DNA of 64,000 bases, taken from positions 35,919-99,918 of the forward strand of contig CAUUJG010000001.1 of NCBI GenBank assembly GCA_963545485.1. Direction: 5' to 3'. The notes under the pieces were generated by a model, which was not told where the DNA came from, made no database searches, and was given only the letters and a program-made list of their open reading frames with translations. This DNA comes from an uncultured Clostridia bacterium (GTDB taxonomy: Bacteria > Bacillota > Clostridia > Christensenellales > CAG-917). The position numbers and the translations under genes are program-made. Each line of letters starts with the position of its first letter. Position 1 is the first letter of the stretch. This document shows, one piece after another, positions 30,617 through 49,511 of this stretch.

Positions 30617-31912
30617 ATGCTAAAAAGAAAGTTAGAAGAAGAGCTTAAAGTTTGGAGGAATAAAGACAATAAAAAATGCTTAATAATAGAGGGTGCGAGG
30701 CAAGTAGGTAAAACTTTTACAATAAGACGCTTTGCAGAGCAGTATTACGATAACTATATTGAACTAAATTTTATAAACAAACCATCATACTGCAAAATTT
30801 TTGATGGTGATTTAGATGTTGAAACAATTCGAACGAATATCTCTTTATATTGTGGATTTGAAACGAAAACACATCAAGGTCGAACATTAATATTCTTAGA
30901 TGAAATACAAGTATGTCCAAATGCGATAACGGCGCTTAAATTTTTTAGCATTGATGGAAGTTTTGATGTCATTGCATCAGGGTCCTTATTGGGGATAAGT
31001 TATAGCAAAGTTGCATCATATCCTACAGGTTATGTTCAACATTTGCAAATGTATCCTTTAACATTTGAAGAATTTTTATGGGCAAATGGAGTGTCGGATG
31101 AAATAATTTTAAAGTTGCAAAAATGTTATGAAAATGTAGAAGAAGTTAATGCGGCAATGAATGCCAAAATACAGGATTTATTTAAACAATATATGGTAGT
31201 AGGCGGGATGCCAGAAGTTGTAAATTCTTTTGTTACAGAACATAACTATGCAACAGTATTAAAAATTCAAAGGGCAATAGTTAAAGATTATGAAAACGAC
31301 ATTGCAAAATATGCCGAATCAGGCGAAAAAGTTAAGGCTAAAGCATGCTTCAAAAGCATTCCGGTACAACTATCAAGAACAAACAAAAAGTTCATGTATA
31401 GCATAGTAGAGAAGAACAGCAAGAGTTCAAAGTACATTGATAGTGTTAATTGGCTTATAGATGCCGGCATTGTTGCCAAGTGCAACAATCTCTCAAGATT
31501 GGAGCTACCGCTAACGGGATATGCACAAGAAAATAATTTTAAAATATACATGAGTGATACAGGTTTGCTGGTATCAATGCTTGATGATGAAACAAATGTA
31601 CAAATAATCGAAGGGAATTTAGGCATATACAGTGGTGCAGTTTTTGAAAATGTTGTTGCTCAAATATTGAGAGCACATTCAAGGCAGTTATACTTTTTTA
31701 ATAGGAACAATTCATTGGAAATAGATTTTGTTATTTCACAAGATAGAAAAGTAATTCCCATAGAAGTAAAAGCAGGCAATAATAAAGCAAAATCATTAAG
31801 AGTACTTTTGGATGAAAATCCAACAATGCAAGGAATTAAACTTGTTAATGGGAATGTTGGGTATAGGGACAGAGCAACCACATATCCGCATTACATGTCT
31901 ATGTTTATATAA
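30617..31912 (+). CDS. AAA-type ATPase with DUF4143-like C-terminal region (paralog 2)
   Basis: Walker A GARQVGKT and Walker B LIFLDEIQ. GGAGG SD. Same family as 27782..29050. Confidence 0.8.
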   Translation: MLKRKLEEELKVWRNKDNKKCLIIEGARQVGKTFTIRRFAEQYYDNYIELNFINKPSYCKIFDGDLDVETIRTNISLYCGFETKTHQGRTLIFLDEIQVCPNAITALKFFSIDGSFDVIASGSLLGISYSKVASYPTGYVQHLQMYPLTFEEFLWANGVSDEIILKLQKCYENVEEVNAAMNAKIQDLFKQYMVVGGMPEVVNSFVTEHNYATVLKIQRAIVKDYENDIAKYAESGEKVKAKACFKSIPVQLSRTNKKFMYSIVEKNSKSSKYIDSVNWLIDAGIVAKCNNLSRLELPLTGYAQENNFKIYMSDTGLLVSMLDDETNVQIIEGNLGIYSGAVFENVVAQILRAHSRQLYFFNRNNSLEIDFVISQDRKVIPIEVKAGNNKAKSLRVLLDENPTMQGIKLVNGNVGYRDRATTYPHYMSMFI

Positions 31913-32302: not shown

Positions 32303-32338
32303 TTGACACTAATTTTATAAGTTTAATATAATAAACTT
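32303..32338 (+). promoter_or_regulatory. promoter of the ABC/lipoprotein block, with a palindrome overlapping the -10
   Basis: TTGACA (32303-32308), 18 nt, TATAAT (32327-32332). The ATG lies only 10 nt downstream and has no SD. Palindrome AAGTTTA-ATATAA-TAAACTT spans 32319-32338. Confidence 0.65.
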
Positions 32339-32342
32339 AATT

Positions 32343-34436
32343 ATGACCAAAGAAAAAAAACACCTTGTAGAACTTAAAAATATTGGTAAAATATACGATA
32401 CAAATAACTTATATACTATAGGTATTCGTCATATAGATTTAGGATTTGATCTTAATGAATTTGTTACTGTAGAAGGCGAATCTGGATCTGGAAAATCCAC
32501 ATTATTAAATGTAATTGCAGCTAATGATACATATGAAGAAGGAGAGATGTATTTTAATGGGACAGAGACATCTCATTATTCAGAATTAGAGTGGGATAAA
32601 TATAGAGAAAAGAATATTTCATTTATATTTCAGGACTTCAATATAGTGGAAAACCTCACAGTTCTTGAGAATGTAGAGTTGGCATTATTCTATTTAGAAG
32701 ATGCAACAAAAAGAAAAGAACTGGCGACTGATCTTATAAATAAAGTGGGACTTGCAAAACAGATAAATCAAAAGACAAGTAAACTATCTGGAGGAGAAAA
32801 ACAGAGAACGGTAATTGCCAGAGCTTTGGCTAAAAATTCTCCAATTATTCTAGCAGATGAACCTACTGGTAATTTGGACAGTAAGTCGGCAATGGAAATA
32901 GCAACTTTGCTTAAAGAAGTGTCAAAAGATAGGCTTGTAATAGTTGTAACACATAATGCGGAATATTTTGATAAGTATTCAACGAGAAAAATAGTATTGC
33001 ATGATGGCGGGGTTATAAGTGATAAACCAAACAATGTGAATGACGAACGATCATCAAATATTGAAATTGAAACCAAAGAAATAAATATAAGGAATACTAG
33101 AAAAAATGTATTTTGGTTAGGTGGACTAAATTATAAATCAAGACCAAAATTCACGGCACTAATGTCAGCCATTTCAGTCACATTTTCAATCGCATTATTT
33201 TTCATTATAGCCTTGTTTTCAAATAGAATAATTGAACCGATAAAACAAACAGTATCTGAGACTCCGATTGCAGGTAAAACTATAGTTAAAAAAGTAAGTA
33301 GTGAGAATTTTTCAAAAGTAGAATATGACAAGTTGCTAGATTCAGTGCACGCAAATTTTGCATTTAAAAATAACGAGTTTTCGGAAATAAATATAATAAC
33401 GGATGAAATGGATGAATATAAATCACAGAATATAACATGTCTGTATGATCCATATAAACATGATTTAAAAGAAGAAGAAGCGGTTATGTATTTGCCATAT
33501 TCACTTGCACATTATGAATCATATTTAAAAAAGATACTGAATGAACTTCAAATAGGGATTAAAAAAATAAAAATAAAGAAAACTTTAGAGCAAGGAAAAA
33601 TTAGAGTATATTTTTCAAAAAACACATTGTATAAATATGGTTTAAATTTAAAATACACATACAGCCCAATGCAGTTCGGGAATCATAACCTTAAAGTTTA
33701 CAAATATACGAAAGGAGAAGGCTTAAAACCAGGAGAAATTAGGTTGATAAATCTTAAATATTGGGCGGGAGATTTATCGGAAGTTTTTCTTGCAGCATTT
33801 GCATCACAGAAGTTTAAAATAGTGAATACAGAAGATAACACTATTGATAAATCAATACCAGGATTAGCTGTGGAGATGAATTCGGAAGACTATGAAAAAG
33901 TTTTTAATAAAGGAATCCCATTTGGGAATGAAGTGTCACTGTATTATAAGAATAATAAACTTGCAAAGCAGAAAACAGATGCGATAAGTGGGCAGTATGG
34001 ATTATTTAGATCTGACGAGAAGACATATAGAGACAAGGCAGCTGATACATTTATATTAAATGTGCTTGCTTACGCCGGTCTTGTAGTGTCTGGAATATTG
34101 TTGGGGATATTGGTAAGTATTATATTTTCAAAAAATGTCGGAGTATTAAGTGGAGATTTTGCGATATATAGGACATTGGGAATTTCGAGAAGAGATGCAA
34201 AAGCGTCATTATATATACAAATGCTATTTATATTTTTACCAAACATTATTTTGTTGCCGTTGGTTTCATTGATAGCGACTATCATCCCAAACAGTACGCT
34301 AAGCTTTATATCTCTATGGAATTACTTAATTATTGAAGTTATTATGCTTGGTATTGTTGAAATAGTTGCATTTAGGTTTAACAAAAAAATATTTAAGACA
34401 TCCATAAGAAAATCTTTAAGTAGAGGATCAAAATGA
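32343..34436 (+). CDS. MacB-type ABC transporter, fused ATPase-permease (subunit A)
   Basis: Walker A GESGSGKST, signature LSGGEKQR, Walker B ILADEPTGNLD, H-loop VVTHN. These are followed by TM1 (FTALMSAISVTFSIALFFIIALF), an extracytoplasmic region of about 290 aa, and a C-terminal FtsX-type 3-TM bundle (YRTLGISRRDA...). Confidence 0.9.
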   Translation: MTKEKKHLVELKNIGKIYDTNNLYTIGIRHIDLGFDLNEFVTVEGESGSGKSTLLNVIAANDTYEEGEMYFNGTETSHYSELEWDKYREKNISFIFQDFNIVENLTVLENVELALFYLEDATKRKELATDLINKVGLAKQINQKTSKLSGGEKQRTVIARALAKNSPIILADEPTGNLDSKSAMEIATLLKEVSKDRLVIVVTHNAEYFDKYSTRKIVLHDGGVISDKPNNVNDERSSNIEIETKEINIRNTRKNVFWLGGLNYKSRPKFTALMSAISVTFSIALFFIIALFSNRIIEPIKQTVSETPIAGKTIVKKVSSENFSKVEYDKLLDSVHANFAFKNNEFSEINIITDEMDEYKSQNITCLYDPYKHDLKEEEAVMYLPYSLAHYESYLKKILNELQIGIKKIKIKKTLEQGKIRVYFSKNTLYKYGLNLKYTYSPMQFGNHNLKVYKYTKGEGLKPGEIRLINLKYWAGDLSEVFLAAFASQKFKIVNTEDNTIDKSIPGLAVEMNSEDYEKVFNKGIPFGNEVSLYYKNNKLAKQKTDAISGQYGLFRSDEKTYRDKAADTFILNVLAYAGLVVSGILLGILVSIIFSKNVGVLSGDFAIYRTLGISRRDAKASLYIQMLFIFLPNIILLPLVSLIATIIPNSTLSFISLWNYLIIEVIMLGIVEIVAFRFNKKIFKTSIRKSLSRGSK

Positions 34437-36217
34437 TAGAACTGAAGAGTATTAACAGACAATTTAAGATAGGTGGAAAACAGTTTAATCATGTATTGAA
34501 AGATATTTCGTTGAAATTCCCAGAGAATGGACTTTGTGCAATTTATGGTAAATCCGGCTCAGGGAAAACCACCCTACTAAACATATTGGGCGGATTAGAT
34601 AGACCAAATAGTGGGAAAATTATAGTTGATGGTGAAGAATATTCTTATATAAGTGACAAAGTTAGAAATAAAAAAATAGGATTCATTTTTCAAAACTATT
34701 ATTTAGAAAGCGATACAACGATTCAGCAGGTTCTTGAGAACCAAATGCGAATTGCTGGCTTTACAGATAAAAATGAAATGATACGAAGAAGTGAAAAAGT
34801 TCTTGAATTAGTAAAGTTAAGTAGATTTAAAAATAAAACTACAGATTCGTTATCAGGTGGACAAAAACAAAGAGTTGCAATTGCAAGAGCATTAGTAAAA
34901 GGTGCAGATATAATATTAGCTGATGAGCCGACAGGAAATTTAGATAGTGAAAATACTGCGGCAGTAATGGAAATATTAAAAGAAATTTCTAAAACTAAGT
35001 TAGTCGTTCTAGTTACGCATGAGCAGAATCTAATACAGGAATATAGTGATGTTCACATAGAATTAGTTGATGGAAGTGTGACATTTTCTAATGTTGAAAC
35101 TGGAGAACATAAAACAGGACATGAAAATAGTAATATAGTTTTTGAAAAAGCAACTGGAGGTAAAACAGGAAGACTATTTTCACTTAAAAATGTAGCGAGA
35201 GTACAAAAAGTGACAAGAGAACAGAGAATGTATTCTACTGCTAACATATTTAAACAGATATTCCTCATTGCATTTGCAGTTGTGCTTTCTTTTCTCTCAA
35301 TGAAACTTTTTGAGTACAGTAAAGTGGATGTTTTGAGAAAAAATATAAAAGCAAATCAAACATTAGTTAGACTTAACGATTATCATTTCATAAGGGAGCT
35401 GGAAGATGGAACAGACCCAAGAAAGCCAGTTAAGGAATATGATGATATCGACTACTTTACTGCAGAAGATAAAAGTGGAGTATTTAGTTTGAATGGTATA
35501 TCAAGGGCGGGATCTGCAGAAGTTAACTATACTCAAAAAACGGCAAAAAATCTTAAAAATGGGGATATGCTGGTTGGTAGATTGCCGGAATTAGGTGAGA
35601 TTGTTGTTAGTAGTGGGTTGGCTGAAAAAATAAGGGAACAGTATAGACTTAAGACATTTAAACATTTGAAAACTGTTGAAATGTTGCAATTAGATGGAAA
35701 ATATAAAATTGTTGGAGTAGTGCCCGAGCAAGAATCAAATGTTTACTTTAACCAGGAAGATTACATAAATAATTTAGGGATATTTAGCGGAATAGAATTT
35801 TATGATCCCACAGAAATGTATTTTCCATCGGCATTTAAGTTTTCAAATATAACTACTAGAATAAGTCTGACAACAGTAGATACTCTTAAAAAAGATGAAG
35901 CAATTTTGGAAGTTAGTAGTACAGCACAGAGGAAAATAGGGAGCATTAAGAGTCTTGCAGATGTCAATGCAGAATTGCTTGGACAGCCTAAATTGATTCA
36001 ACTGAAAAACTCCAAGGTATTTATTAAAGAAATCAGACGAACAGAAGATAATGAATACGATTTTAATATAAAAGTTGGTAGAGAAACATTGAATGATATA
36101 TTCCATGATGTAGCCCCTAATCTGGGACGGCTTAAAAACACTGCAAGCATTGATAATTTATTTTATTTAGTAACAAATAATAATATTGATTCTCACTACA
36201 TACTAAGTCACATTTGA
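34433..36217 (+). CDS. MacB-type ABC ATPase + TM1 + extracytoplasmic domain (subunit B, lacks the FtsX bundle)
   Basis: GKSGSGKTT, LSGGQKQR, ILADEPTGNLD, LVTHE. TM at IFLIAFAVVLSFLSMKLF. The extracytoplasmic part is about 300 aa. ATGA overlap with subunit A. The ORF stops just before the expected C-terminal TM bundle. Confidence 0.85.
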   Translation: MIELKSINRQFKIGGKQFNHVLKDISLKFPENGLCAIYGKSGSGKTTLLNILGGLDRPNSGKIIVDGEEYSYISDKVRNKKIGFIFQNYYLESDTTIQQVLENQMRIAGFTDKNEMIRRSEKVLELVKLSRFKNKTTDSLSGGQKQRVAIARALVKGADIILADEPTGNLDSENTAAVMEILKEISKTKLVVLVTHEQNLIQEYSDVHIELVDGSVTFSNVETGEHKTGHENSNIVFEKATGGKTGRLFSLKNVARVQKVTREQRMYSTANIFKQIFLIAFAVVLSFLSMKLFEYSKVDVLRKNIKANQTLVRLNDYHFIRELEDGTDPRKPVKEYDDIDYFTAEDKSGVFSLNGISRAGSAEVNYTQKTAKNLKNGDMLVGRLPELGEIVVSSGLAEKIREQYRLKTFKHLKTVEMLQLDGKYKIVGVVPEQESNVYFNQEDYINNLGIFSGIEFYDPTEMYFPSAFKFSNITTRISLTTVDTLKKDEAILEVSSTAQRKIGSIKSLADVNAELLGQPKLIQLKNSKVFIKEIRRTEDNEYDFNIKVGRETLNDIFHDVAPNLGRLKNTASIDNLFYLVTNNNIDSHYILSHI

Positions 36218-36726
36218 ATAAACTAAATAATAATAATGAAAAACACAAAATGCTTAGAAACAGCATGGATGAAAAGAACTTAATTAAACCAAATTTGAAA
36301 GAGTATTATGATTTAAAGAAAGCAGACTTAAAGTCAAATTTGGCACCAGCTATATTAATTACAGTTGCGGGTGTGATGTTATTATTCCTAATCTATTATT
36401 TCATTGAAAAAGCGGAAAGCATAAAAAACAGAAAAGAATACGGTATATTGCGAGCTATTGGAGTTGGGAAAGGTAATTTGTTGTTTAAAGAGACGATGGG
36501 ATGTGTGTTTAATAATTTTATAAGCTTCACAATTTTTCTTATGATAGGATTTATATTTATCCTTGCAAGATATCTTATTCTTAATGTTGCAGTTGGATAT
36601 TTTGCATTAATAGTTTTTGCAATATATGTTGCAACTCTTGTAATATTCCTATTGATCTCATTGTCGCCATATTTATTTGTAATAAAGGATACTCCTGCAA
36701 AAATATTATCAAGGTATGATATCTGA
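36214..36726 (+). CDS. FtsX-type 3-TM permease fragment completing subunit B (split gene or frameshift)
   Basis: TTG 36214 overlaps the B stop (ATTTGA). Contains ...APAILITVAGVMLLF...YGILRAIGVGKGNL... plus two more TM segments, collinear with the C-terminus of subunit A. No independent SD. Confidence 0.6.
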   Translation: MNKLNNNNEKHKMLRNSMDEKNLIKPNLKEYYDLKKADLKSNLAPAILITVAGVMLLFLIYYFIEKAESIKNRKEYGILRAIGVGKGNLLFKETMGCVFNNFISFTIFLMIGFIFILARYLILNVAVGYFALIVFAIYVATLVIFLLISLSPYLFVIKDTPAKILSRYDI

Positions 36727-36792
36727 TAAAAAGTTAGAAAAAAATAAAAATTTTTGTTAAATAAGCTTAAATTTAGTTTTATATTTTTTATG

Positions 36793-36811
36793 AGTTTAAT
36801 ATAATTAACTT
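36793..36811 (+). promoter_or_regulatory. internal promoter-like -10 with the same palindromic motif, upstream of giant lipoprotein 1
   Basis: AGTTTAATATAATTAACTT is nearly identical to 32320-32338. TATAAT at 36800-36805. A GGAGG SD follows at 36830-36834. Confidence 0.45.
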
Positions 36812-36839
36812 AAATAATAGTAAATATTCGGAGGAATAA

Positions 36840-39800
36840 ATGAAAAAAATTAAAGTTATTGGATTAAGTATGTTTTTGCTTACGATGATGTTTGTTTTTG
36901 CTGCTTGCACAAAGAGTTTGGGAACAGTAAATTTCTTTGTTGACGGAAAGAAAGTCGGAAGCAGTAGCATTAATAGTAAATATGAATACAAACTTCCCGA
37001 GGAACCTAAAAAACCTGGTTATAGGTTTATAGGCTGGTATGAGGAGCTTGGTCATTTAAGTAAAAAATTTAAAAAAGGAACCAAAAAGAATGTACATGCA
37101 AGGTTTGAACCGATTTTGACAGAGACAAACATTGAAGGTGAAGCACCTAACAAAAGAACAATTCTTGATGTAGCTCAAAATATTCCTAAAAAAGAGAATT
37201 TAACATTCAGTGGATGGTATACGGACCCCGATTATAAGACTCCATATAAAAATCAAAATGTTGATAAGATTTATGGCAAATTTATGGCAAAAGTAACATA
37301 CCATAATGGTTATGAAGTTCTTAAAGAGGAATTGGTTGATGTAAACAATTCTATAAAAAAACCAGAAATTAACAGTGACTTTATCAAAGAATATATGGAT
37401 GAAGAAGATGTTTCATTTATGAATGGTAACTATAAATTTGATTTCGATCAAAAAATAACAAAAAACACAGTAATAGATGTAAAGTGGAGAACCAAAACAA
37501 TTAAAAATGCATATGGGCAGATTGAGGGATATCAACCGGTAGCTAACGGAGATGGGACATACAGATGGGAGGAGAAGGGTGTATCAGATCACAAATGGCC
37601 AGTTTTATCTCTACCAGGAAAAGCAACAATAGATGTAGGTGGTACTAAGGAAGAAAAAACATTTACAGGAATTAATTTTGGTCAAATAAACGAAAAAACT
37701 GAAAAAATAATTGTAGGAAAGGGAATAAAGTATATATCAGGATTAATGCCACAGTTGCACAATAATTTAAAGGAAGTTGTTTTACCAAATACATTAAAAG
37801 TAATAGAAAATTCATTTAACTACACGTTGGATGATGCAAAAGTTAATATCCCAGAAAGCGTAGAGACAATAATTCATAGTTTTTGGAAAAATTCACAGCT
37901 TTATCCCTTTGAAGGATTAAAGCATCGTAGAGATAATGTAAAAATACCTGCAAGTGTTAAACATCTCGCATTAATGCCAACAAACCTAGAGTTTGAAAGT
38001 AATGATGTTTTCGAAAAAGAAAACGATATGATTTTTAAGAAAGATGGTGGAAATAGAACATTGGTTGCAATAAATTTAACAAAAGAATATGAGCAATTTA
38101 ATATTCCTGAAGGTGTGACACATGTTCAAGTTGGAATATTTAATCATTTTGATAGATTTGCACCATCTATAAAAAGAATCAAGTTTCCATCTACATTTAA
38201 AGGTGTTAAGTACAATCCTAACGAAAATGAATATCCAGGATATTCAAACCCCAACGAGTGGTTATTTAAAGATGGGATGACAGTTGAGGAAATTGTAGCA
38301 AAATATAAAGATACTCTTAACGTAGAGGAAAAAGTTTCGATGTACACAATTGTGAATAAACTTAGCAGATATCAGTTGGTTGAGTTTAATTTAAAAGAAT
38401 ATCCTTCAGGATTAGAAGAAAATTTATTTTATGATAGTGCATTACAAAAGAACATGTCAGAAGATGAATTATTAGATAAGACATTGTTTTCTGCAAAGAA
38501 GGAAGTTGGACAACCGGTTACTGTAAAAGCATTTGTTAATCATAAGTACATACTTGAGAAAAAATTTAGAAAAGCAATTTCTTCAAAAAAGAGTGGAGAA
38601 AAGATTACATTAGAAGAAATTAAGAGTGAGCTTGGATTAGGAGCAGATGATGTTTTGTTGAATTCTTTAACAACGGGCAATCCAATAGAAAATGATGAAA
38701 TTCTCTTAGAAAGTGATATTAATTTTTATGCGGAACTATCTACGACAAAAGATGGTATAGAGATAGAAGAAGATGGTGATGGCAATGCTGTTGTAAGTGG
38801 ATTCAATAAAGACAATGCAGAACTTGATGAAGATACAAATCTTTATAATGTATATATACCAAAAATGAAAAATGGTAAAAAAGTCATTGGCATAAAGGAA
38901 GGTGCATTTAAGGGGAACAAACTTATACAAAATGTATATACAGAAGCAAATCTTGAATATATTGCTGATGAAGCGTTTATGGATGCTGAACATTTAAGAT
39001 TATTTACAACCAATAGCAACAATTTAAAGAGAATTGGGAAGAGAGCGTTCCAAGATAGTGGGTTAGAAAAAATAATACTTCCATTAAGAAATTTAGAAGA
39101 AATAGGTGAATTTGCATTTAAGTGTAGGAATCTAGAGTACTTTAAAGTCCCAGAAGAGGAAAAAAGCGATAGAATGGTTAAGAGTATTTATGGAGTATTT
39201 GGAATAGGTAAATATCTTTCAGAACGTCTTGAAAAAGGGAAATTCTATCTCAGTGGAGCAGATGCTCATTCTTATGATGGTAGTGAAAACTACACTGATC
39301 AAAGTTCTCAAATAGTTAGATATACAGGTAAGACAGTTGAAAAGGTTAAGAAGAATGCAACATCAGAAGAAACAAATGACGCTGTAGTTTTTGACTTTGA
39401 GTTGTATGCACAGGCCGCAAGAGGGGTTAGAAATGATTTTAGCGGTATGTCGTTGCAATTGGGGACAAGTATAAGACATAGAGCTAAGAATTATCCAGTA
39501 TTGGCAGATGCTCCAGTTATGAGATATACAATAAAAAAAGGGGCAGTAAGTTATTTGCCAGCGAAAGCAGATTATATACCAGATGGCGAAGATGGTAAGG
39601 GAGAAATTATAAATATTAGTTTCGGTGTAATTAAGAAAGTTGAAGAAGGGGCATTTACAGATATGGAGGCAGCATTTGGAGAGATTGATACTAATACAGG
39701 TAAGGCAAAATATTTTCAAATAGTACAACCAGATCATGACCCTGACAAGGAAGTTGATCAATGGGTATTTCCTGAAGATTTTAATGATAATAATAAGTTT

Positions 39801-39908
39801 GAAGATGGATGGTGGAATGGCATTAAGCGAGCTGATAGTAATTATAATGAAGTTATAGGTAATGCATTAAGTAATATAAATTATGATCAATATATAAAAT
39901 TTTATTAA
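36840..39908 (+). CDS. giant surface lipoprotein 1 (Flg_new/Listeria-Bacteroides repeats + BspA-type LRR)
   Basis: Signal peptide with lipobox (MMFVFAAC). GYRFIGWYEE and LTFSGWYTDPDY repeat motifs. The C-terminal half holds LRR_5-like units (IGIKEGAFKGNKLIQNVY..., IGKRAFQDSGLEKIILP...). 1022 aa. Confidence 0.85.
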   Translation: MKKIKVIGLSMFLLTMMFVFAACTKSLGTVNFFVDGKKVGSSSINSKYEYKLPEEPKKPGYRFIGWYEELGHLSKKFKKGTKKNVHARFEPILTETNIEGEAPNKRTILDVAQNIPKKENLTFSGWYTDPDYKTPYKNQNVDKIYGKFMAKVTYHNGYEVLKEELVDVNNSIKKPEINSDFIKEYMDEEDVSFMNGNYKFDFDQKITKNTVIDVKWRTKTIKNAYGQIEGYQPVANGDGTYRWEEKGVSDHKWPVLSLPGKATIDVGGTKEEKTFTGINFGQINEKTEKIIVGKGIKYISGLMPQLHNNLKEVVLPNTLKVIENSFNYTLDDAKVNIPESVETIIHSFWKNSQLYPFEGLKHRRDNVKIPASVKHLALMPTNLEFESNDVFEKENDMIFKKDGGNRTLVAINLTKEYEQFNIPEGVTHVQVGIFNHFDRFAPSIKRIKFPSTFKGVKYNPNENEYPGYSNPNEWLFKDGMTVEEIVAKYKDTLNVEEKVSMYTIVNKLSRYQLVEFNLKEYPSGLEENLFYDSALQKNMSEDELLDKTLFSAKKEVGQPVTVKAFVNHKYILEKKFRKAISSKKSGEKITLEEIKSELGLGADDVLLNSLTTGNPIENDEILLESDINFYAELSTTKDGIEIEEDGDGNAVVSGFNKDNAELDEDTNLYNVYIPKMKNGKKVIGIKEGAFKGNKLIQNVYTEANLEYIADEAFMDAEHLRLFTTNSNNLKRIGKRAFQDSGLEKIILPLRNLEEIGEFAFKCRNLEYFKVPEEEKSDRMVKSIYGVFGIGKYLSERLEKGKFYLSGADAHSYDGSENYTDQSSQIVRYTGKTVEKVKKNATSEETNDAVVFDFELYAQAARGVRNDFSGMSLQLGTSIRHRAKNYPVLADAPVMRYTIKKGAVSYLPAKADYIPDGEDGKGEIINISFGVIKKVEEGAFTDMEAAFGEIDTNTGKAKYFQIVQPDHDPDKEVDQWVFPEDFNDNNKFEDGWWNGIKRADSNYNEVIGNALSNINYDQYIKFY

Positions 39909-39923
39909 AAATCGGGATTTAGT

Positions 39924-42900
39924 ATGAATAGAAAAAAGTGGGTATATGCAGTTTTATGTATAGTGTTAGTTTGTTTGAGTTTTGCGGGATGTACAATTAT
40001 CCCGCAAAACTCAACTCCTAATCAGGTGTTGAAAAAATATTACGGAAATCAAAAATATACAATTCGTTTTAACACAGAAGATCTAGAAGATAAGCTTTCC
40101 CCACTTACTTATACAGCATCAAGGACACCTAAGTTACCAACTGTATCAAAAGCTGGATATGTGTTTGCAGGTTGGTACTATGACAGAGAACTGAAAGAAG
40201 AATGTAATGATAGTAACTTGAAGTTAAAAATGTGCGATGTTGTACTGTATCCAAAATGGTTAAAACAGGAACTGAGAGATAACGGTATTTATAAAATTGA
40301 GTTCGATGTTGTTCGATCAAAAGAGGATCCTGTCACAAAAGAGGAACTTACAGATGAGTACCCACCAAAAGAATTTTCAGAAAGTATAATTAAGGGAAAT
40401 ACTGTAATTGAAAAAAATGGGCAACAGAAGATTCTAAAAATAGGATATGACTGTGGTACAACAGTTCCATTTGGATCAAAAGATCCATATACTGTCGAAC
40501 TTACAAAAGATAAAAATCCGAAAGAGATGCGGATAGTGAAGAGGACTGAAAACGCCTCAGAATCAAAGAAAGAAGTATATATAGATATCTCAGAATATGA
40601 AGATTATGACAAACCTATATATCTTTCTGTTACTGCAATAAATTATCTCACTCCAGGCATGTCGAGTGACGATAGAATTAAAACCACCACAACATATGTT
40701 GTTAAATTTAAAATAAAAGTCATTAAAGGACTTGAAAAAGAATATTCAAAAATAAAAAATGGCAAATTACATGATGGTCATTATCTTGTTAGAACCTTTT
40801 ATAGGCAGATGGATAATTCATCAACAATGATGTCGTATTTTAATCCAGTATATGGGTATCTCATTGCAAAAGATGGACACTATAAATATGTTAAAGAGGT
40901 TAATCCATATTATGGATTGTTTGCAAATGAAGCGGATTTGGCAGAACCAAAAAATCAAAATTTCTTTAATCGGGCAACAACATTTGCGAATTTTTATGCG
41001 GCTTACACAATTGATTTCAATGCGAATGAACCGATGAATACAGAAGAACATCCTAATAAGATTGAAAGCAAGTATTATCCAGAAAAATATAATGGTGGGA
41101 AATTTATAGAATATTCTTTAGAGTATGATAGTCAATCAAACAAGATGTGGCAGGTTTTTGATCTTGGGCAGTCATTGGGGAAGCATTTTGCAGCTGTTGG
41201 AGCTGTAACAGGTTTTATGGAACTTGTTATGCACATGGGTCGTTTGGAACAGATAATGACAATAGATTATGACAACATAGTTGCAGTTGCTCCAGAATAT
41301 AAATCACTTGAAGGAGATGCATATACTTTTAGAAGAGAAACTTCACATTATGCTGGCAACGATACAAGTGTATTAAATCAAAGTATAGCTAAATCTAAAC
41401 TTGAAGAATGTGGAACAGCGTCAGAGTATCTTAATTTTTTATTTTCAAATAAAAAATATTTTTCTAATAAAGAATTGGAAACAAATAAAAATATTAGAGG
41501 TGACATACCGAGCTTTAGGGTTACAACACGAGGTATGACCGATGATGAAATGAAAAGCCAATATACAAAAATGCAAATGATAGATACTCAGTATGAGGTA
41601 TTTGGGTTTGATAAAGATCAATATTTATATGGTGATTTTATGTCAACTCAAACATTTGGTTCACAAGGAAGACGAACAATAGAACCAGTTATGAGCGGAA
41701 TGATGCTTAACCCTGGAGATGTATCCAGTATTAAAGAAATTTTCAAATCCAAAGTAGATAAAAATCAATCAATTGATTCTGTAAATGTTAAAGCTTATAA
41801 AGCAAAATATTATGAGACAGATTATAGTCAAGAAATATCATTAAGTGGAGATTCGTATACTTATGCGGAGCCAGTTGATCTGATTTATGAATATGTAAAG
41901 AACGGGTATAAGAGAATTGCTAAAGTTAGGTTAAGGACATATGAAGAGCCTGATTTCAATCTAAATGCCAGACCGGAAGATAATTTTTCTGAAACACATG
42001 AATATATGCCAGGGGAAACATATAGTATACCAACTAAAATGACAGCTATGTGGGGTGGCTATACTAATACGTATGTAGCAAAATTTTATGGTGGAAATAA
42101 TGTTAATCCTAATGCGAATAAGCTTTCATACAATTTAACATTACTTTCTCGATATGAAGAAAAGAATGGGAAAATGCGTCATGAAGAAAATATAGTGGAA
42201 GAATATGAAAAACTTAAAATTTCTGGTGGCATTGAAAGTGTTGTTTGGGTTGCTGAAATAAGGAATATTTTTGGAGAAAAAAAATATAAAGAAATTAAAT
42301 TACAAGTAAAGCCTACGCCACGCTATATTATTAAAAATTCTAATGGTGAAGAAGTTGTAAATAAAGCATCAAGCCTTAGAGATGGTGAAATTAAAAGTGA
42401 ACATACAGAGCTTTATTATATAGCCAAGACTGAAGAAGATCTAAAAAAGTTTATTAAAGAAATTTATACATACCAAGTCGCACATAAAAGTGGAACATTT
42501 AGACTTGAAAGTTACAGGACGAGTACTGGAAGTTTTGCAAAAGATTTATGGAAGATGAATATAGAAGATGTTTTTAATGAGATTAATGGATTAGTTAAAG
42601 ATGGAGCAGGGCTAACTTTGTGGTATAGTAGCGGATCGGAAACTATTATGGTTAAAATAGTCGCATTTGTTACTTTCAACGGCGAACCGGATGTTAAGGT
42701 TTCCAGTCATAAGGCATTATTTACAAATCAAAAATATAAATTAGAATTTGCAAAAATTAAAAATAAAAATGGTGAAAGAATAACTACAAAAACAACAATG
42801 CAAGTATATTACATGAATGGTGGCACATATAGTAGTGATAAGGCACATTTTGAATATAATGATATAACCGGAGAGATAATATTCAAGCAAGCTGGAAAAT

Positions 42901-43853
42901 ATTATTTTATATACTATTTTTCTGGAAAGAATTTCTTTTTTTCAAAAAGTTTTACATATGAAGTATATAGACATGATATAGATGTAACTGTCAGGTACAC
43001 AACCGATGCTGCTCATCCATTTAAAGATGGAACAACAGAAAAAGAGATCACGCACAGTTTGAAAGATCATTTACTCTTGATGCAAGCTCAAGATTATGCA
43101 GACAGTATACCTAAAGATAGCAAACTTTTAGGCTATACAACTGATAGTGAAGAAGATACTAGCACAATTGGTGATGGTGAGAAGGAAATTACAAACTTTA
43201 TACATAGGTTCCATAGTAGAGAAGTCACACTACATGCAGTTTGGGATGATGGGAAACTAATTACACTTGATATGGATACAGCAAGGACAGGTGTACCAAA
43301 TTACACAAGGAGAATGTACAAATCGGGAAGCACATCGCAAGGATATTATTTTGCGAATCAAACATATGGTCATCAGTTGAATATAGAAGATATATTAAAA
43401 GATAAAACAATTTTTTCGGTAGCACAGATAAATAGTTTGAGCAAAAATTATAAATTGGTAGAACTTGAAAGTAATGTATTTCCTGGTGGAAGTATTTCTA
43501 TAGAGGGATACAGGAAAAATGTAATGTATGAATTTCAAGAAGATATAACGATTAAATTAAAATTCAGAAGGAGAATGAAGCTCGAATACAATATAGATAA
43601 AAAAGATGATGATAATGGTGATAATGTTTCTAATACATATTTTGGGAATGCTGATATTGTAGCTGGAGAAGTATTAGGAGAGGACCTTTATAAAAAAGTT
43701 GAGATTAAAGAAAAATATAAAGATAAGTATGAGTTTCTTGGATGGTATTTATTTGGTGATAGCACTGAGACATTAATAGATTTTAAGACATATGTACCTG
43801 TTGAAAATAGTAGCGGGAAACTGAAAATTGTAGCAAAAATAAAAAGAAAATAG
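39924..43853 (+). CDS. giant surface lipoprotein 2 (mostly unassigned; Flg_new-like motifs at both ends)
   Basis: Lipobox (CLSFAGC). GYVFAGWYYDRELKEE near the N-terminus and YEFLGWYLFGD near the C-terminus. 1309 aa with no other domain I can recognise. Confidence 0.85.
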   Translation: MNRKKWVYAVLCIVLVCLSFAGCTIIPQNSTPNQVLKKYYGNQKYTIRFNTEDLEDKLSPLTYTASRTPKLPTVSKAGYVFAGWYYDRELKEECNDSNLKLKMCDVVLYPKWLKQELRDNGIYKIEFDVVRSKEDPVTKEELTDEYPPKEFSESIIKGNTVIEKNGQQKILKIGYDCGTTVPFGSKDPYTVELTKDKNPKEMRIVKRTENASESKKEVYIDISEYEDYDKPIYLSVTAINYLTPGMSSDDRIKTTTTYVVKFKIKVIKGLEKEYSKIKNGKLHDGHYLVRTFYRQMDNSSTMMSYFNPVYGYLIAKDGHYKYVKEVNPYYGLFANEADLAEPKNQNFFNRATTFANFYAAYTIDFNANEPMNTEEHPNKIESKYYPEKYNGGKFIEYSLEYDSQSNKMWQVFDLGQSLGKHFAAVGAVTGFMELVMHMGRLEQIMTIDYDNIVAVAPEYKSLEGDAYTFRRETSHYAGNDTSVLNQSIAKSKLEECGTASEYLNFLFSNKKYFSNKELETNKNIRGDIPSFRVTTRGMTDDEMKSQYTKMQMIDTQYEVFGFDKDQYLYGDFMSTQTFGSQGRRTIEPVMSGMMLNPGDVSSIKEIFKSKVDKNQSIDSVNVKAYKAKYYETDYSQEISLSGDSYTYAEPVDLIYEYVKNGYKRIAKVRLRTYEEPDFNLNARPEDNFSETHEYMPGETYSIPTKMTAMWGGYTNTYVAKFYGGNNVNPNANKLSYNLTLLSRYEEKNGKMRHEENIVEEYEKLKISGGIESVVWVAEIRNIFGEKKYKEIKLQVKPTPRYIIKNSNGEEVVNKASSLRDGEIKSEHTELYYIAKTEEDLKKFIKEIYTYQVAHKSGTFRLESYRTSTGSFAKDLWKMNIEDVFNEINGLVKDGAGLTLWYSSGSETIMVKIVAFVTFNGEPDVKVSSHKALFTNQKYKLEFAKIKNKNGERITTKTTMQVYYMNGGTYSSDKAHFEYNDITGEIIFKQAGKYYFIYYFSGKNFFFSKSFTYEVYRHDIDVTVRYTTDAAHPFKDGTTEKEITHSLKDHLLLMQAQDYADSIPKDSKLLGYTTDSEEDTSTIGDGEKEITNFIHRFHSREVTLHAVWDDGKLITLDMDTARTGVPNYTRRMYKSGSTSQGYYFANQTYGHQLNIEDILKDKTIFSVAQINSLSKNYKLVELESNVFPGGSISIEGYRKNVMYEFQEDITIKLKFRRRMKLEYNIDKKDDDNGDNVSNTYFGNADIVAGEVLGEDLYKKVEIKEKYKDKYEFLGWYLFGDSTETLIDFKTYVPVENSSGKLKIVAKIKRK

Positions 43854-44125
43854 GCTAGTATAAATAAAGCGAGATATATGAGTATTAGAATAATATACTT
43901 GATATTTCGGTTTTGTTTTATGTTGCAATATAGGGATCTTTTCGAAGAATCAAATAGAAAAGATGTAGTAAATATAATCATTGGTTTGTAGAGCATCTTT
44001 GATAGTGGATTTTGGGTGGGATAGAAATAATTGAGCTGGCTAGATGTTCAGTTATTGGCAACGTGGATTCAGAATAAGATACAACATGAAAGTCAATTAA
44101 ATTTTACTAACAATGAATTGTAATA

Positions 44126-44154
44126 TTGAAGTTTAGAGTTTCCAACTTTATAAT
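44126..44154 (+). promoter_or_regulatory. promoter predicting a leaderless protease mRNA
   Basis: TTGAAG (44126-44131), 17 nt, TATAAT (44149-44154). The ATG at 44161 is only 6 nt past the -10, with no SD. Confidence 0.55.
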
Positions 44155-44160
44155 TAATCC

Positions 44161-44916
44161 ATGAATGAACTTCCTAATAATGATTTAGAAACTAATGTCA
44201 GTAGACAAAAAAGGCTTATTCTCATTAGTTTGTTCATTTCTTGTACTTTAGTCATTGTATTCATAACAGCAATAATCGGAATTACATATAATTCAAGAAG
44301 TTATATCAAGAGGATATATGATAGGTCTCTTCAAAGTGTAGTTGAAGTTAAAGCATATACAAAGGATGTCGGTGAAAGTTTCGGATCAGCAGTTCTAATG
44401 AAAGGCGACGGGACACTAGTTACGAACTCCCACGTAGTTACATATTCAAAACTGGGAGAAACAAAGGCATTTGATGAGATAAGTATTAGGTTTGCAAATA
44501 GTGAAAAATATATGTCAGTCACCTTAGTTAAATATGATGTCTTAAAAGATTTAGCAGTATTAAAAATAAAAGATAAAAGTCTGAAGAAATTGAAGGCAAT
44601 GAAGACAGGGGACATCAAAAAAGTAAAATCTGGAGATGAGGTTTTTGCTATAGGAAATTTATCTAACTATGGGATAGGAATCACAAAAGGGCATGTCAGT
44701 GTTCCAAAGATAAATATTGTAGTTGATGGAAATAAAAAAGAAGTAATTCAATGTGACATAACAATAGTATCTGGAAGTAGTGGCGGAGCATTGATTAATA
44801 GGAATGGTAAACTTATAGGAATTACAACATTTAGAACAAAGGATAACCTAGGGAATGTTATTCATGGAATAGGATATGTGATTCCGATAAACAGAGTGTT
44901 AGAGTATATAAAATAA
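44161..44916 (+). CDS. membrane-anchored trypsin-like (S1C/HtrA-type, no PDZ) serine protease
   Basis: N-terminal TM (LILISLFISCTLVIVFITAIIGI). Catalytic triad contexts TNSHVV, KDLAVLKI and GSSGGALIN. Confidence 0.88.
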   Translation: MNELPNNDLETNVSRQKRLILISLFISCTLVIVFITAIIGITYNSRSYIKRIYDRSLQSVVEVKAYTKDVGESFGSAVLMKGDGTLVTNSHVVTYSKLGETKAFDEISIRFANSEKYMSVTLVKYDVLKDLAVLKIKDKSLKKLKAMKTGDIKKVKSGDEVFAIGNLSNYGIGITKGHVSVPKINIVVDGNKKEVIQCDITIVSGSSGGALINRNGKLIGITTFRTKDNLGNVIHGIGYVIPINRVLEYIK

Positions 44917-44930
44917 AAGGAGTGTGACGG

Positions 44931-46028
44931 ATGAGGAAATTATTTAAGAATAAGTACTATCTATTAATGATTTGTGCAGTCGTGTGTTTTTCTATTGCAT
45001 TGGTATATACCCTTTCAGGGACTTTAACTGCAAAACAAAATGTAAGAGACATAAACTTGAAGTCAAAACAGGTAGATGTACAGTCTATACTTAATAAATT
45101 TAGTGATGTAGAAATGGACAAGAATAATGAAAGAATTCTGTTTGAAGGGACACAAAAGTTAGACCCTAGTTTGTTAAGAGAAATAGATAACTTAAGTGGC
45201 GAAGAAGCTAATAAATTGAAGAGTGTAGATGTTAGATATTCATTTAAGTACGATATGGTTACAAACACCGTAACATTAAAAGCAACCATGTATTTGCCAG
45301 ATGGGACAGTAAAAGTAGATACGATTACAGGAGTAGGATTTATTAATGATGCTAATGAGATAGATGCTGTGATGAATGTCGATGGCGAGGGCGTTCTACT
45401 GAGTGAGATGAGAAATGCAGGATTAATAGATAATGTAGGATGGTTCTCAAGAATAATAAAGAAGATAGCAAAAGTTGTCGCAGTAGTAGCCGTTACGGTA
45501 GCGGCGGTTGCAGTAGTGGTTGCAACTGTAGGAGCAGCGGCACCAGCAGTTGTAGCGGCAGGAATAGGTGTGGTGACGACAGTAGTTTCATCGGCAGCGG
45601 TGACAGGAGCAACGATAGCGGGGTATGCAAGTATCACAGCGGCGATTGCGGCGGGTGTGCTTCTTACAGCGGACATGATCAAGGAAGTGGATTGGGACGG
45701 AGTGACACATAAAACAGAAGAGTTAACAAGTGAACTTAGGTCAGAATTAGCTCCGAACAAGTTTTATCTAGCATTCCCATTAAAAAATGGTAAATTGTAC
45801 ATTTCTAAAATAGCACTTAGTGATTTTTCTGCAATGAGAGCAGCTCGTGCAAAGATGAGCATATATACTTTATTTGGAAATGCTTACGAAATGGCAAAAA
45901 CAGTAAACTATGGTTATCCGCCAGAACATCATTCTGCGACAATTAATGGGTACTATGACCATTATCATGCTTATAGAGCAAATAAAAAAAGTCATATTTT
46001 TTATGGTTTACCAAGGTGTTCGTATTAA
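44931..46028 (+). CDS. membrane protein with Ala/Val/Gly-rich hydrophobic core and His-rich C-terminal domain
   Basis: AGGAG SD. N-terminal TM. A stretch of about 75 aa (VVAVVAVTVAAVAVVVATVGAAAPAVVAAGIGVVTTVVSSAAVTGATIAGYASITAAIAAGVLL). The C-terminus has PPEHH...GYYDHYHAY...SHIFYG. No family assigned. Confidence 0.8.
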   Translation: MRKLFKNKYYLLMICAVVCFSIALVYTLSGTLTAKQNVRDINLKSKQVDVQSILNKFSDVEMDKNNERILFEGTQKLDPSLLREIDNLSGEEANKLKSVDVRYSFKYDMVTNTVTLKATMYLPDGTVKVDTITGVGFINDANEIDAVMNVDGEGVLLSEMRNAGLIDNVGWFSRIIKKIAKVVAVVAVTVAAVAVVVATVGAAAPAVVAAGIGVVTTVVSSAAVTGATIAGYASITAAIAAGVLLTADMIKEVDWDGVTHKTEELTSELRSELAPNKFYLAFPLKNGKLYISKIALSDFSAMRAARAKMSIYTLFGNAYEMAKTVNYGYPPEHHSATINGYYDHYHAYRANKKSHIFYGLPRCSY

Positions 46029-46029
46029 T

Positions 46030-46878
46030 ATGGTAATCATTTTTGGGAAAGAATATGACAGAGTAATAAAACAGTGGTTTCCTAATGGAATGGATTACAC
46101 TGTAGAAAATATTATTTTTTTATTTGAAAAAGAGTTTAATGCTAGGCAAATAGATATGGAAGATATTCCTAAATATATTAAAGAGTGTCGTGATTACCCA
46201 CATTACTTTCAAACTATAGAAGATTATACAGAGGATTCTATATCTTCAAGTGAAAAGTATTTAATTTTTGTGAGTGATGCGATTTCAGATAATAACTATC
46301 GTGAGGAAGAAGATAAATTATTCAATCTAATTGTTTTGAGTGTTGAGGGGGATAAAGTTATTAATTATTATTCCAACGCACATGGTGGAAATGGCGATTT
46401 TATGATGTTGATTGCTGATAAGTTTTACAAGGCAGGATTGGGAGAATTGAGTGCAGAAGAAGTTACATCGCTAAATCAAGCAAAATTTGAAATACTCAAA
46501 ATTAAAAAATTTAATAATGAATTGAATTACACATTAAGTAACTTAATAATTATTTTGAAAGAGCAGTTCAATGCGGTTGAGATAGAATTAAAAGATTTAG
46601 AAAAGTATGCGAGAGAATATTCGGCATTTTCCGATTATTATAATTGCATTGAAGATTATACTGAGGAACGAATTAAGAGTGGGCAGAAGTATGTTGTACT
46701 TATTTCTGATAATGATAATAAAGAACCAATTTTTAATGGAAGTTTTAGAATATATAATGTAATATTCATTTCTTATGAGGCTGATAAAATACTAGACATA
46801 TATCTTAATTTAAAGCAAAGTAGCAGTTTTCTTAAGCATGTAATTGAAGTGTTTGGAAATAATAAAATCAAAGAATAG
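46030..46878 (+). CDS. internally duplicated cytoplasmic protein (candidate partner/immunity protein)
   Basis: ATG 46030 lies 1 nt after the upstream stop. The track's 45910 start overlaps the previous gene by 119 nt. Two homologous halves of about 95 aa each (aa about 22-116 and 166-260). Confidence 0.75.
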   Translation: MVIIFGKEYDRVIKQWFPNGMDYTVENIIFLFEKEFNARQIDMEDIPKYIKECRDYPHYFQTIEDYTEDSISSSEKYLIFVSDAISDNNYREEEDKLFNLIVLSVEGDKVINYYSNAHGGNGDFMMLIADKFYKAGLGELSAEEVTSLNQAKFEILKIKKFNNELNYTLSNLIIILKEQFNAVEIELKDLEKYAREYSAFSDYYNCIEDYTEERIKSGQKYVVLISDNDNKEPIFNGSFRIYNVIFISYEADKILDIYLNLKQSSSFLKHVIEVFGNNKIKE

Positions 46879-47023
46879 CTGACGTGTAAAAGTATATGTA
46901 TAGGTGATTTTGAGTGATAAGGAAAGTTGTGTGATGTTGCGACTATTTAAGGAATTTTGTCTAAAAATAAAATAGACAAGTTAAACCAATGAAGTTTTGA
47001 GAATTTTCTTCTTTCCCTACATA

Positions 47024-47172
47024 ATCATTTCCTGTCATTCTAAGGTCTCTGCACTCGCCGTTGATAATTCCATCAAAAGAACTAAATCGTTAAAACTAAG
47101 GTGTGTAGGGGAGATTTTGGGGTAAATTCGATATGATCGGATAGCATGACATTGTGTTCGAGCAGATCATGG
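47024..47172. repeat. direct repeat R, copy 1 (non-coding)
   Basis: Aligns by eye with 52500-52630 through the shared blocks ATCATTT, TCATTCTA, GGTCT, CCATCAAAAGAA, AATCGT, AAAACTA, TGTGTAGGG, GGGGTAAATTC, ATATGATC, GATAG and ATCATGG. Confidence 0.7.
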
Positions 47173-47330
47173 TCAATACTATTTATGGGGTGTTGGGTTT
47201 GAGGGATTGAGTGGGTTAGATGTGTGTTTGGTGTTGAATACAATATAGTGAAGACGCTATACTACGGCATCTAGGAATAGGTGTTTTTTTATTTCCTAGA
47301 TAGATAAGTTTTTGATGCTGTCTAATAATA

Positions 47331-47378
47331 AGTTAAACAATATAAACTATTGACAATAAAAGCAGTGAGGAGTAGGAT
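47331..47378 (+). promoter_or_regulatory. promoter of the LRR lipoprotein gene with an upstream palindrome
   Basis: AGTTAAACAATATAAACT (47331-47348), TTGACA (47350-47355), 17 nt, TAGGAT (47373-47378). An AGAGG SD precedes the ATG at 47423. Confidence 0.55.
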
Positions 47379-47422
47379 ATTTTTGAAAAATGTTCATATA
47401 AATATTCATATAGAGGTACTTA

Positions 47423-49438: not shown

Positions 49439-49511
49439 AGCAAAAACAATGAAATAAAAACTACAAATAAGTGGATATGGTATGGATAACTTTTGATGCT
49501 CTCCACTAATA

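Follow-up and report, generated by a model that had tools for sequence, protein, structure and literature searches.

A four-gene ABC/lipoprotein module and an adjoining protease-scaffold cassette in uncultured gut Clostridia

The window analysed here is a stretch of 64,000 nt from the metagenome-assembled genome (MAG) of an uncultured Clostridia bacterium (GCA_963545485.1, contig CAUUJG010000001.1, positions 35,919-99,918 of the forward strand), and our subject is a block of genes at 32303-46878 of that window. The block begins with two genes for fused ATP-binding cassette (ABC) proteins, ABC1 and ABC2, followed by genes for two giant lipoproteins, Lipo1 and Lipo2, and then by a trio of genes for a protease, an Ala/Gly-rich membrane protein and an internally duplicated soluble protein. 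It is most likely made up of two unrelated units lying side by side, a conserved four-gene ABC/lipoprotein module (32303-43918) and a strain-specific cassette for the protease, a putative toxin and a candidate immunity protein (43979-47410). An earlier note on this DNA had treated the whole block as one system; the strain-specificity of the trio and a terminator-like hairpin ahead of it speak for two. The same note described seven same-strand genes in a row, and both strand and coordinates are borne out, except that ABC2 is split into two open reading frames (ORFs) in this copy.

The DNA of the window is chromosomal and AT-rich (about 32% GC), all sizeable ORFs at 32343-46878 are on the plus strand, and tRNA genes flank the block on both sides. 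The ORF spacing upstream of the block looked like that of a ribosomal-protein cluster, a resemblance in spacing only. With regard to the loci used for close comparison, L003 and L004 are metagenome contigs about 98% identical to the window, and L005 is from a sister species and 91% identical. The features of the module are as follows.

32303-32338, plus strand: module promoter, TTGACA-18-TATAAT, with the palindromic motif AGTTTAATATAATAAACTT overlapping the -10 box
32343-34436, plus strand: ABC1, 697 aa; MacB-fold (type VII) half-transporter by structure model, with fused nucleotide-binding domain (NBD), transmembrane helix (TM) 1, ectodomain of about 270 aa and TM2-4; Pfam ABC_tran
34433-36217, plus strand: N-terminal part of ABC2, 594 aa; NBD, TM1 and ectodomain, truncated by a frameshift
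36175-36224, plus strand: insertion of 50 nt that disrupts ABC2, flanked by AAATAATAATA direct repeats (11 nt), from alignment with L003 and L005
36214-36726, plus strand: C-terminal part of ABC2, 170 aa in a different frame; TM2-4, FtsX-like, matching the C-terminus of intact ABC2 in L003 at 99% identity
36778-36811, plus strand: the promoter/palindrome motif again, ahead of Lipo1; this second copy is particular to the lineage of the window
36840-39908, plus strand: Lipo1, 1022 aa; lipobox FAAC, Flg_new repeats and a BspA-type LRR_5 domain
39924-43853, plus strand: Lipo2, 1309 aa; lipobox FAGC, N-terminal Flg_new, then a predicted chain of beta-sandwiches
43862-43918, plus strand: terminator-like hairpin and U-tract after the Lipo2 stop codon (RNA fold -15 kcal/mol, z -3.5), which closes the module

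The start of ABC2 at 34433 overlaps the end of ABC1 by 4 nt (ATGA). ABC2 falls into ORFs of 594 and 170 aa because of the 50-nt insertion, which is absent from L003 and L005, where ABC2 is one gene of 747 aa; an intact ortholog is also present in L004. The insertion reflects either a mutation that makes ABC2 a pseudogene or an error of assembly. An alternative genetic code was considered as the cause of the split and rejected, as the two ORFs are in different frames and the sister genomes do not have the 50 nt. The Lipo2 gene of a second, paralogous cassette (Lipo2'), which lies on the same contig as the window, is also split, into 941 and 351 aa as against 1277 aa where it is intact elsewhere, and the two splits together indicate either that pseudogenes are building up in the surface modules of this genome or that the assembly is chimeric. 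Since ABC2 is disrupted in this genome copy, the module may here be inactive or mis-assembled.

The module promoter has a perfect sigma-70 consensus (12/12) at 32303-32332, and the ATG of ABC1 is 10 nt past the -10 hexamer with no Shine-Dalgarno sequence (32327-32345). The layout upstream of ABC1', the ABC1 paralog of the second cassette, is alike, and the spacing suggests that the ABC1 mRNA is leaderless or near-leaderless. The palindromic motif AGTTWAATAYAATWAACTT overlaps the -10 box at 32320-32338 (ABC1), 36793-36811 (Lipo1) and 62472-62490 (ABC1'), and there is a copy with 2 mismatches at 49511-49529, upstream of a gene for a 926-aa lipoprotein. It may be a shared operator. The motif is kept in L003 and L005 and is not found in more distant species, and a shared ABC1/Lipo1 promoter motif was rejected as a general feature of these modules, being present only in the lineage of the window.

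Conservation and fold of the ABC and lipoprotein genes

To look at conservation, the alignment of the ABC1 membrane half was scanned against one genome per GTDB species, which gave 64 loci, and the proteins of the window were compared with them by tblastn. All 64 are from uncultured MAGs, mostly labelled as gut-associated Clostridia, Christensenellaceae or "Acholeplasmataceae/Anaeroplasmataceae". The earlier note had asked whether homologs of the ABC pair lie beside large lipoprotein genes in other genomes, and they do: ABC2 and homologs of Lipo1 and Lipo2 follow on the same strand in 45 of the 46 loci that have at least 7 kb of downstream DNA, and in the sole exception ABC1 is degraded, with a frameshift. 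Of the 49 related loci with 3.5 kb or more of downstream DNA, 48 have a Lipo1 homolog, and one locus (L006) has the two lipoprotein genes the other way round. Across the loci the proteins are of much the same sizes (ABC1 686-748, ABC2 741-843, Lipo1 about 1000-1100 and Lipo2 1244-1496 aa), and in all lipoprotein homologs a hydrophobic leader is followed by a Cys. In 41 related loci the median gap between ABC1 and ABC2 is -1 nt. Median distances between the other genes are 61-65 nt, which in most species leaves no room for separate promoters.

The four proteins also diverge together. Correlations between their similarity matrices are 0.78 for ABC1/ABC2, 0.72 for ABC1/Lipo1, 0.66 for ABC1/Lipo2 and 0.93 for Lipo1/Lipo2 (overall r 0.61-0.93), and nearest neighbours mostly agree across the four. 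One MAG carries two distinct cassettes, one of them (L011) like that of L001 and the other L021, and in all four genes the two side with different cassette types. Lipoprotein identity across loci is only 25-30%, and conserved gene order at low identity is a classical sign of a functional unit. That the ABC pair and the two lipoproteins form one such unit is thus well supported by comparison of the genomes. The proposal in the earlier note that the ABC pair serves the giant lipoproteins is in keeping with this synteny and co-divergence as far as a functional link goes; the protease trio, which it had included, drops out.

A fifth gene, for a protein of about 412-437 aa, overlaps or nearly abuts the Lipo2 stop codon in 32 of 35 loci (for example L001 21795-, L010 10178-11491, L072 7830-9068 and L073 13960-15207), and appears to be translationally coupled to Lipo2. 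The protein begins with a signal peptide and has a TM anchor at the C-terminus; its NEAT-like domain covers the full profile and scores 30-32 bits against a Pfam gathering score of 32.8. No homolog of this gene was found in the window by tblastn, and in L003 and L005 a gene for an LRR_5 lipoprotein takes its place directly after Lipo2. In about half of the loci (L001 19-9930 and about 20 others) the module is directly preceded by one or more DtxR-like repressor genes, two ABC_membrane exporters and an energy-coupling factor (ECF) module consisting of a Trep_Strep S-component, CbiQ and a double ATPase, with YgbA_NO also in the neighbourhood. This ECF/exporter neighbourhood is absent from the window.

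In the case of the ABC proteins, canonical Walker A, signature, Walker B and H-loop motifs can be read from the sequence of both NBDs. An AlphaFold2 (AF2) model of ABC1 made with 46 homologs (predicted local distance difference test, pLDDT, 79.7) has four TM helices, at residues 252-296 (TM1), 566-611, 616-647 and 658-685, with an alpha/beta ectodomain of about 270 residues (297-565) between the first and second. The best Foldseek matches of the model in the PDB are full-length MacB structures (5lj7, 5gko, 5lil and 5nik; E 1e-29 to 1e-22 over about 730 columns), with YbbAP entries also among the matches. As modelled, ABC1 is a protein of the MacB (type VII) fold, with four TM helices and a large ectodomain between TM1 and TM2. 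The earlier note had described two NBD-TM-ectodomain-FtsX fusions joined by an ATGA overlap; the overlap is there and the structure model agrees with the fold given for ABC1, whereas Pfam shows no FtsX or MacB domain in it and ABC2 is split.

Both NBDs score best against the models for L_ocin_972_ABC, LolD, FtsE, MacB and DevA (E 1e-41 to 1e-54), all below the equivalog cut-offs. The earlier note had also allowed that the ABC proteins might fall cleanly into a known efflux or resistance family, and none of the characterised families of this kind reached its curated cut-off. Outside the NBD, ABC1 has no significant sequence match in Pfam, NCBIfam or the PDB (phmmer against the PDB found nothing). 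The family of its membrane half is small and isolated, since among 1.84 billion cluster representatives only 119 proteins match at E≤1e-3 and 12 at E≤1e-30. In predicted topology ABC2 agrees with ABC1. Its putative assignment to the FtsX/MacB type comes from this agreement and from Pfam FtsX, which 13 of 16 homologs match below threshold (best E 1.2e-4).

In L077 (3877-7738) there is a fused protein of 746 aa that is ABC1-like but more distant, with the NBD and C-terminal TM region in common with ABC1. A large gene comes next and overlaps its gene, ahead of which lie genes for proteins of 265 and 904 aa without Pfam match, and a wider family of L077-like modules may exist.

The lipoproteins agree with their description in the earlier note: 1022 and 1309 aa, each with a lipobox, and 15 nt between the genes. 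An AF2 model of Lipo2 residues 110-1309 (pLDDT 80.5) is nearly all beta, and in Foldseek it matches only beta-sandwich arrays, namely the assembly domain of the Bacillus anthracis S-layer protein Sap, Ig-type adhesion receptors and macroglobulin MG domains; neither the model nor Foldseek gave an enzyme or hydrolase fold. For Lipo1, Pfam gave no family beyond LRR_5 and Flg_new, and no hydrolase. In both lipoproteins the N-terminal, membrane-proximal halves are better conserved (0.5-0.66) than the distal halves (0.3-0.4), a gradient that would fit a conserved docking region and a variable exposed region. The two lipoproteins are probably major surface antigens or adhesins of abundant uncultured gut bacteria.

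The window has two further paralogs of module genes, both of which had been recognised in the earlier note.

53260-54945, plus strand: stand-alone paralog of the N-terminal half of Lipo1, a 561-aa lipoprotein that matches the N-terminal ~490 aa of Lipo1 at 39% identity (E 4e-96)
62494-64000, plus strand: ABC1' (P0004), start of the second paralogous cassette, cut by the end of the window

ABC1' has 77% nucleotide identity to ABC1 over the first 300 nt and 61% amino acid identity, and the promoter layout reported for it is the same, including the palindromic -10 motif.

How the module may work

The known uses of type VII ABC proteins include removal of heme by Hrt. They also include efflux by MacAB with an adaptor, lipoprotein extraction by LolCDE, hydrolase activation by FtsEX, and peptide sensing and resistance by BceAB (PMC5985334). 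In these proteins ATP hydrolysis drives movements of the extracytoplasmic domains at the outer face of the membrane (mechanotransmission), with no transport across the bilayer. Members such as FtsEX and LolCDE act on extracytoplasmic partners or on lipoproteins (PMC5985334).

MacB is the best whole-chain structural match, and is alike in having an N-terminal NBD fused to a 4-TM permease with an ectodomain between TM1 and TM2. However MacB is a homodimer working with the MacA adaptor and TolC, whereas here there are two different fused subunits, two giant lipoproteins and no adaptor gene, and sequence similarity to MacB is undetectable outside the NBD. The MacAB-like pumps (MacAB-TolC, YknXYZ, Spr0693-95) have an adjacent adaptor gene, and there is no HlyD/membrane fusion protein (MFP) gene among the neighbours in the window, L001, L003, L072 or L073. 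In those same cassettes we likewise found no two-component system and no bacteriocin gene. BceAB has a separate 10-TM permease and a BceRS-like two-component system, unlike the 4-TM fusions of the module, which have no kinase or regulator genes adjacent.

As is proposed for the module, LolCDE has two different type VII permeases that pair and work on lipoproteins on the outer side of a membrane, and there is a weak match to LolE. It differs in having a separate NBD subunit (LolD), generic cargo and a need for LolA/LolB and an outer membrane, whereas the module has fused NBDs and co-encoded, apparently dedicated lipoproteins; no LolA-like gene is present in the window or the cassettes, the search not having been genome-wide. 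The closest mechanistic analogy is with FtsEX (with PcsB, EnvC, CwlO or RipC) and YbbAP-TesA, non-transporting type VII engines that regulate a dedicated extracytoplasmic partner (PMC5985334). Their partners are coiled-coil activators or hydrolases, whereas Lipo2 has only beta-sandwiches in its model and Lipo1 has LRR and Flg_new sequences; the FtsE scores are 165 and 158 against a cut-off of 265, and there is no hydrolase partner. The module thus lacks what defines MacAB, LolCDE, FtsEX and BceAB, and by analogy would work most like the partner-type systems, with a new class of partner. The earlier note could match the combination to no characterised system, and in the library that we searched no paper on such a gene combination was found either.

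The reading that we prefer, and to which we would give an even chance, is that the ABC pair is a heterodimeric MacB-fold (type VII) engine which works, by way of its ectodomains, on two giant lipoproteins dedicated to it. ABC1 and ABC2 would most likely heterodimerise as two different fused NBD-permease halves, and their ectodomains would dock onto the conserved membrane-proximal N-terminal parts of Lipo1 and Lipo2. The engine would drive the assembly, display or conformational state of the lipoproteins at the cell surface, the lipoproteins being dedicated partners and not generic cargo. In most species the fifth, NEAT-like and C-terminally anchored protein would join the complex, and in the lineage of the window the complex would be without it. 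There is one private ABC pair for each lipoprotein pair, even in paralogous cassettes, and specific recognition therefore fits better than generic Lol-like extraction.

A number of points weigh against this reading. ABC2 is frameshifted in the window. In profile searches against the PDB the sole match of the ABC1 membrane half is LolE, at E 0.04, and that of ABC2 has none; in ABC1, Pfam FtsX (PF02687) is seen only at E 0.9-2.7 and MacB_PCD (PF12704) not at all. The membrane halves of ABC1 and ABC2 have no significant profile similarity to each other (hhalign probability 1.6%). The promoter-like motif that Lipo1 has in this lineage means that the ABC and lipoprotein genes may be transcribed separately, and conserved gene order could reflect co-regulation alone. 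The best NBD family match, "putative bacteriocin export" (TIGR03608), would suit an exporter, and both contact between ABC proteins and lipoproteins and dependence of the lipoproteins on the ABC pair are matters that we infer.

A more far-reaching proposal, which we think rather unlikely, is that the module represents an unrecognised type VII class, in which a MacB-fold heterodimer mechanically actuates two giant beta-sandwich/LRR lipoproteins, together with a NEAT-like anchor in most species. Such a machine could for example serve an adhesive or S-layer-like coat, by extending or retracting it, by re-arraying it or by turning it over.

The TIGR03608 match bears on the first of the other explanations, also an unlikely one in our view, that the ABC pair is a pump for efflux of, or resistance to, peptides, drugs or lipids, similar to MacB, YknYZ or Spr0694-95, with the lipoproteins merely co-transcribed or acting as wall-spanning adaptors in place of an MFP. 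Besides TIGR03608, the NBDs score best against the MacB, DevA and DarD export ATPases, the C-terminal part of ABC2 weakly matches a family of bacteriocin-associated membrane proteins, and Gram-positive MacB homologs are mostly known for peptide resistance (PMC5985334). However all of the export-family matches are below the curated cut-offs, no cassette has an MFP adaptor, a bacteriocin precursor or a sensor kinase, and a pump would not need two lipoproteins of about 1000-1300 aa that are kept in order in 45 of 46 species and co-diverge with the ABC pair.

Improbable, to a somewhat greater degree, is the version favoured in the earlier note, a Lol-like extraction in which the lipid anchors of both lipoproteins are drawn out of the membrane by the ABC heterodimer, for release or for transfer to an outer layer. 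The heterodimeric type VII arrangement recalls LolC/LolE, the LolE match is the only one that the ABC1 membrane half has in the PDB, and the co-encoded proteins are indeed lipoproteins, but the LolD equivalog score is 172 against cut-offs of 308 and 360 and the cassettes have no gene like LolA or LolB. Lol recognises the acyl chains of many lipoproteins, which is at odds with a private ABC pair in each paralogous cassette. The relatives moreover look, from SpoIVA and GPR in L075, like spore-forming Firmicutes, in which an outer membrane would not be expected.

The NEAT-like gene raises a further alternative, that of capture of a host ligand (heme or a hemoprotein), with the LRR lipoproteins and the NEAT-like protein as receptors and the MacB-type pair handling a hydrophobic ligand of the outer leaflet in the manner of HrtBA, together with the ECF importer and ABC_membrane pair that many species have upstream. 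In staphylococci ECF heme importers are located in NEAT loci, and the upstream neighbourhood with its DtxR-like repressors, ABC_membrane exporters and ECF module recalls the streptococcal and staphylococcal NEAT/ECF heme loci (PMC7299338). Set against this, the NEAT-like domains do not have the conserved YxxxY heme-binding motif and score below threshold where they occur, which separates the locus from NEAT heme acquisition of the Isd/Sia type; no heme-related family matches any of the core proteins; and the window, L003 and L005 keep the four core genes without the NEAT-like gene or the ECF module. We rank heme capture as a minor and very doubtful rival because YxxxY is missing and the core genes persist without NEAT or ECF neighbours.

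The protease-scaffold cassette

The trio follows Lipo2 after the gap of about 300 nt given in the earlier note (307 nt), with its protease, Ala/Val/Gly membrane protein and duplicated protein genes in the places reported there; the third gene most likely starts at 46030, not 45910.

43979-47410, plus strand: strain-specific segment of 3.4 kb carrying the trio; L003 and L004 have about 260 nt instead, and it is absent from L005
44161-44916, plus strand: signal-anchored S1 serine protease (HtrA-like, no PDZ); Pfam Trypsin_2
44931-46028, plus strand: putative polymorphic-toxin scaffold, 365 aa; N-terminal anchor, conserved domain of about 130 aa, Ala/Val/Gly hydrophobic module and variable C-terminal domain
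46030-46878, plus strand: internally duplicated soluble protein, candidate immunity protein by position only; no family match

In blastn the 21.6 kb at 22346-43978 align at 98% to L003 and L004, and the identity ends at the trio segment. By tblastn the scaffold and the duplicated protein have no homolog in the 64 related loci, and the protease has only a partial match, upstream, in L068. The protease-scaffold pair is found in five other contexts, with housekeeping surroundings and none near an ABC cassette; in these a Trypsin_2 protease gene lies 10-20 nt upstream of the scaffold homolog and the downstream genes differ. The earlier note had suggested that the protease is a processing or effector component of the ABC machine, and given that the trio is absent from L003, L004 and L005, comes after the hairpin and recurs in unrelated contexts, we do not follow it there. 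That all seven genes are one system, with the trio as processing or effector arm, is extremely improbable: common strand and adjacency in the window are in its favour, and the trio is missing from the relatives apart from the partial protease match in L068, is cut off by the terminator-like hairpin, and has its protease-scaffold pair elsewhere without ABC or lipoprotein genes.

The scaffold protein has 116 relatives in the databases, with the N-terminal ~230 aa in common and C-termini that diverge. Many end in the motif GY[YF]xH[YF]H...HxFYG (GYYDHYH...SHIFYG in the protein of the window), one (P0216) has an Ntox37 C-terminus (28.0 bits, cut-off 27.8) and one (P0225) Ntox35 (39.2 against 23.6), and in an RHS protein (P0234) the same hydrophobic module lies between the RHS core and the C-terminal domain. 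The Ala/Gly membrane protein thus has the anatomy of a polymorphic-toxin scaffold, and may act as a toxin. Like the Firmicute polymorphic toxins (RHS/LXG-type, Ntox) it has a constant N-terminus, swappable C-termini, variable small genes downstream and presence or absence at strain level. It differs from them in that the scaffold is without a described trafficking domain, is membrane-anchored and is always paired with an S1 protease, and in that the C-terminal domain of the window protein (GYYDHYH...SHxFYG) is unclassified. The extracytoplasmic protease would most likely process the toxin precursor outside the membrane, and the duplicated protein, whose halves match each other at 33% identity over 106 aa (E 1e-22), would be the probable immunity protein.

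Against a toxin-immunity function it must be said that residues 241-365 of the scaffold match no Pfam toxin family, that the duplicated protein has neither a Pfam match nor a homolog beside other scaffold genes, and that no secretion system is linked to the cassette. A role for the trio as a defence system was rejected, since the one PADLOC match was to the protease domain of RT-protease models, and the other two proteins had none. A phage or plasmid origin was also rejected, with no relatives found in IMG/VR, INPHARED or PLSDB; there is a PHROG match for the protease alone.

Two lipoprotein genes come after the trio, one at 47423-49438 (LRR_5, with internal repeats of 348 and 135 nt) and the other at 49592-52372 (926 aa, with three 534-nt repeats and EKKP-type linkers), and their upstream and 5' regions are 80-84% identical to each other. 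The first is only about 85% identical to its counterpart in L003, as against 98% for the upstream DNA, and the variable segment may thus extend into this LRR_5 gene. In L069 and L074, too, the protease-toxin pair has LRR_5 genes after it. The window also has two copies, 88% identical, of a 32-nt repeat, at 47116-47147 in non-coding DNA after the trio and at 52588-52619 beside tRNA-His, and this repeat could be a remnant of recombination or attachment. In L076 (1987-4951) a run of six small ORFs (81-181 aa, no family match) lies downstream of a scaffold gene bearing Ntox37, and looks like a series of orphan cassettes for immunity proteins or toxin tips.

Just upstream of the module, paralogous genes for AAA_14/DUF4143 ATPases at 27782-29050 and 30617-31912 flank an oppositely oriented Na/H exchanger gene, and minus-strand tRNA-Lys and tRNA-Gln genes lie between this pair and ABC1.

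Implications

The module looks like a further use of the type VII engine, beyond the handful of jobs now known. Its gene order is conserved in at least 45 species-level genomes, with two copies in some, that of the window included, and it has no characterised relative. Its function is one that we infer, and in the window the copy is damaged in ABC2. The inserted cassette would define a toxin scaffold with a dedicated S1 protease, and so may add to the repertoire of interbacterial competition in the gut.

If the coupling of the ABC pair to the lipoproteins is physical, it would provide a testable complex for how monoderm bacteria build and operate very large lipid-anchored surface structures. 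If mechanical actuation is also true, there would be a new kind of partner for mechanotransmission, beside Lol extraction and hydrolase activation by FtsEX, with actuation of a surface coat as its possible role in these uncultured, small-genome gut Clostridia.

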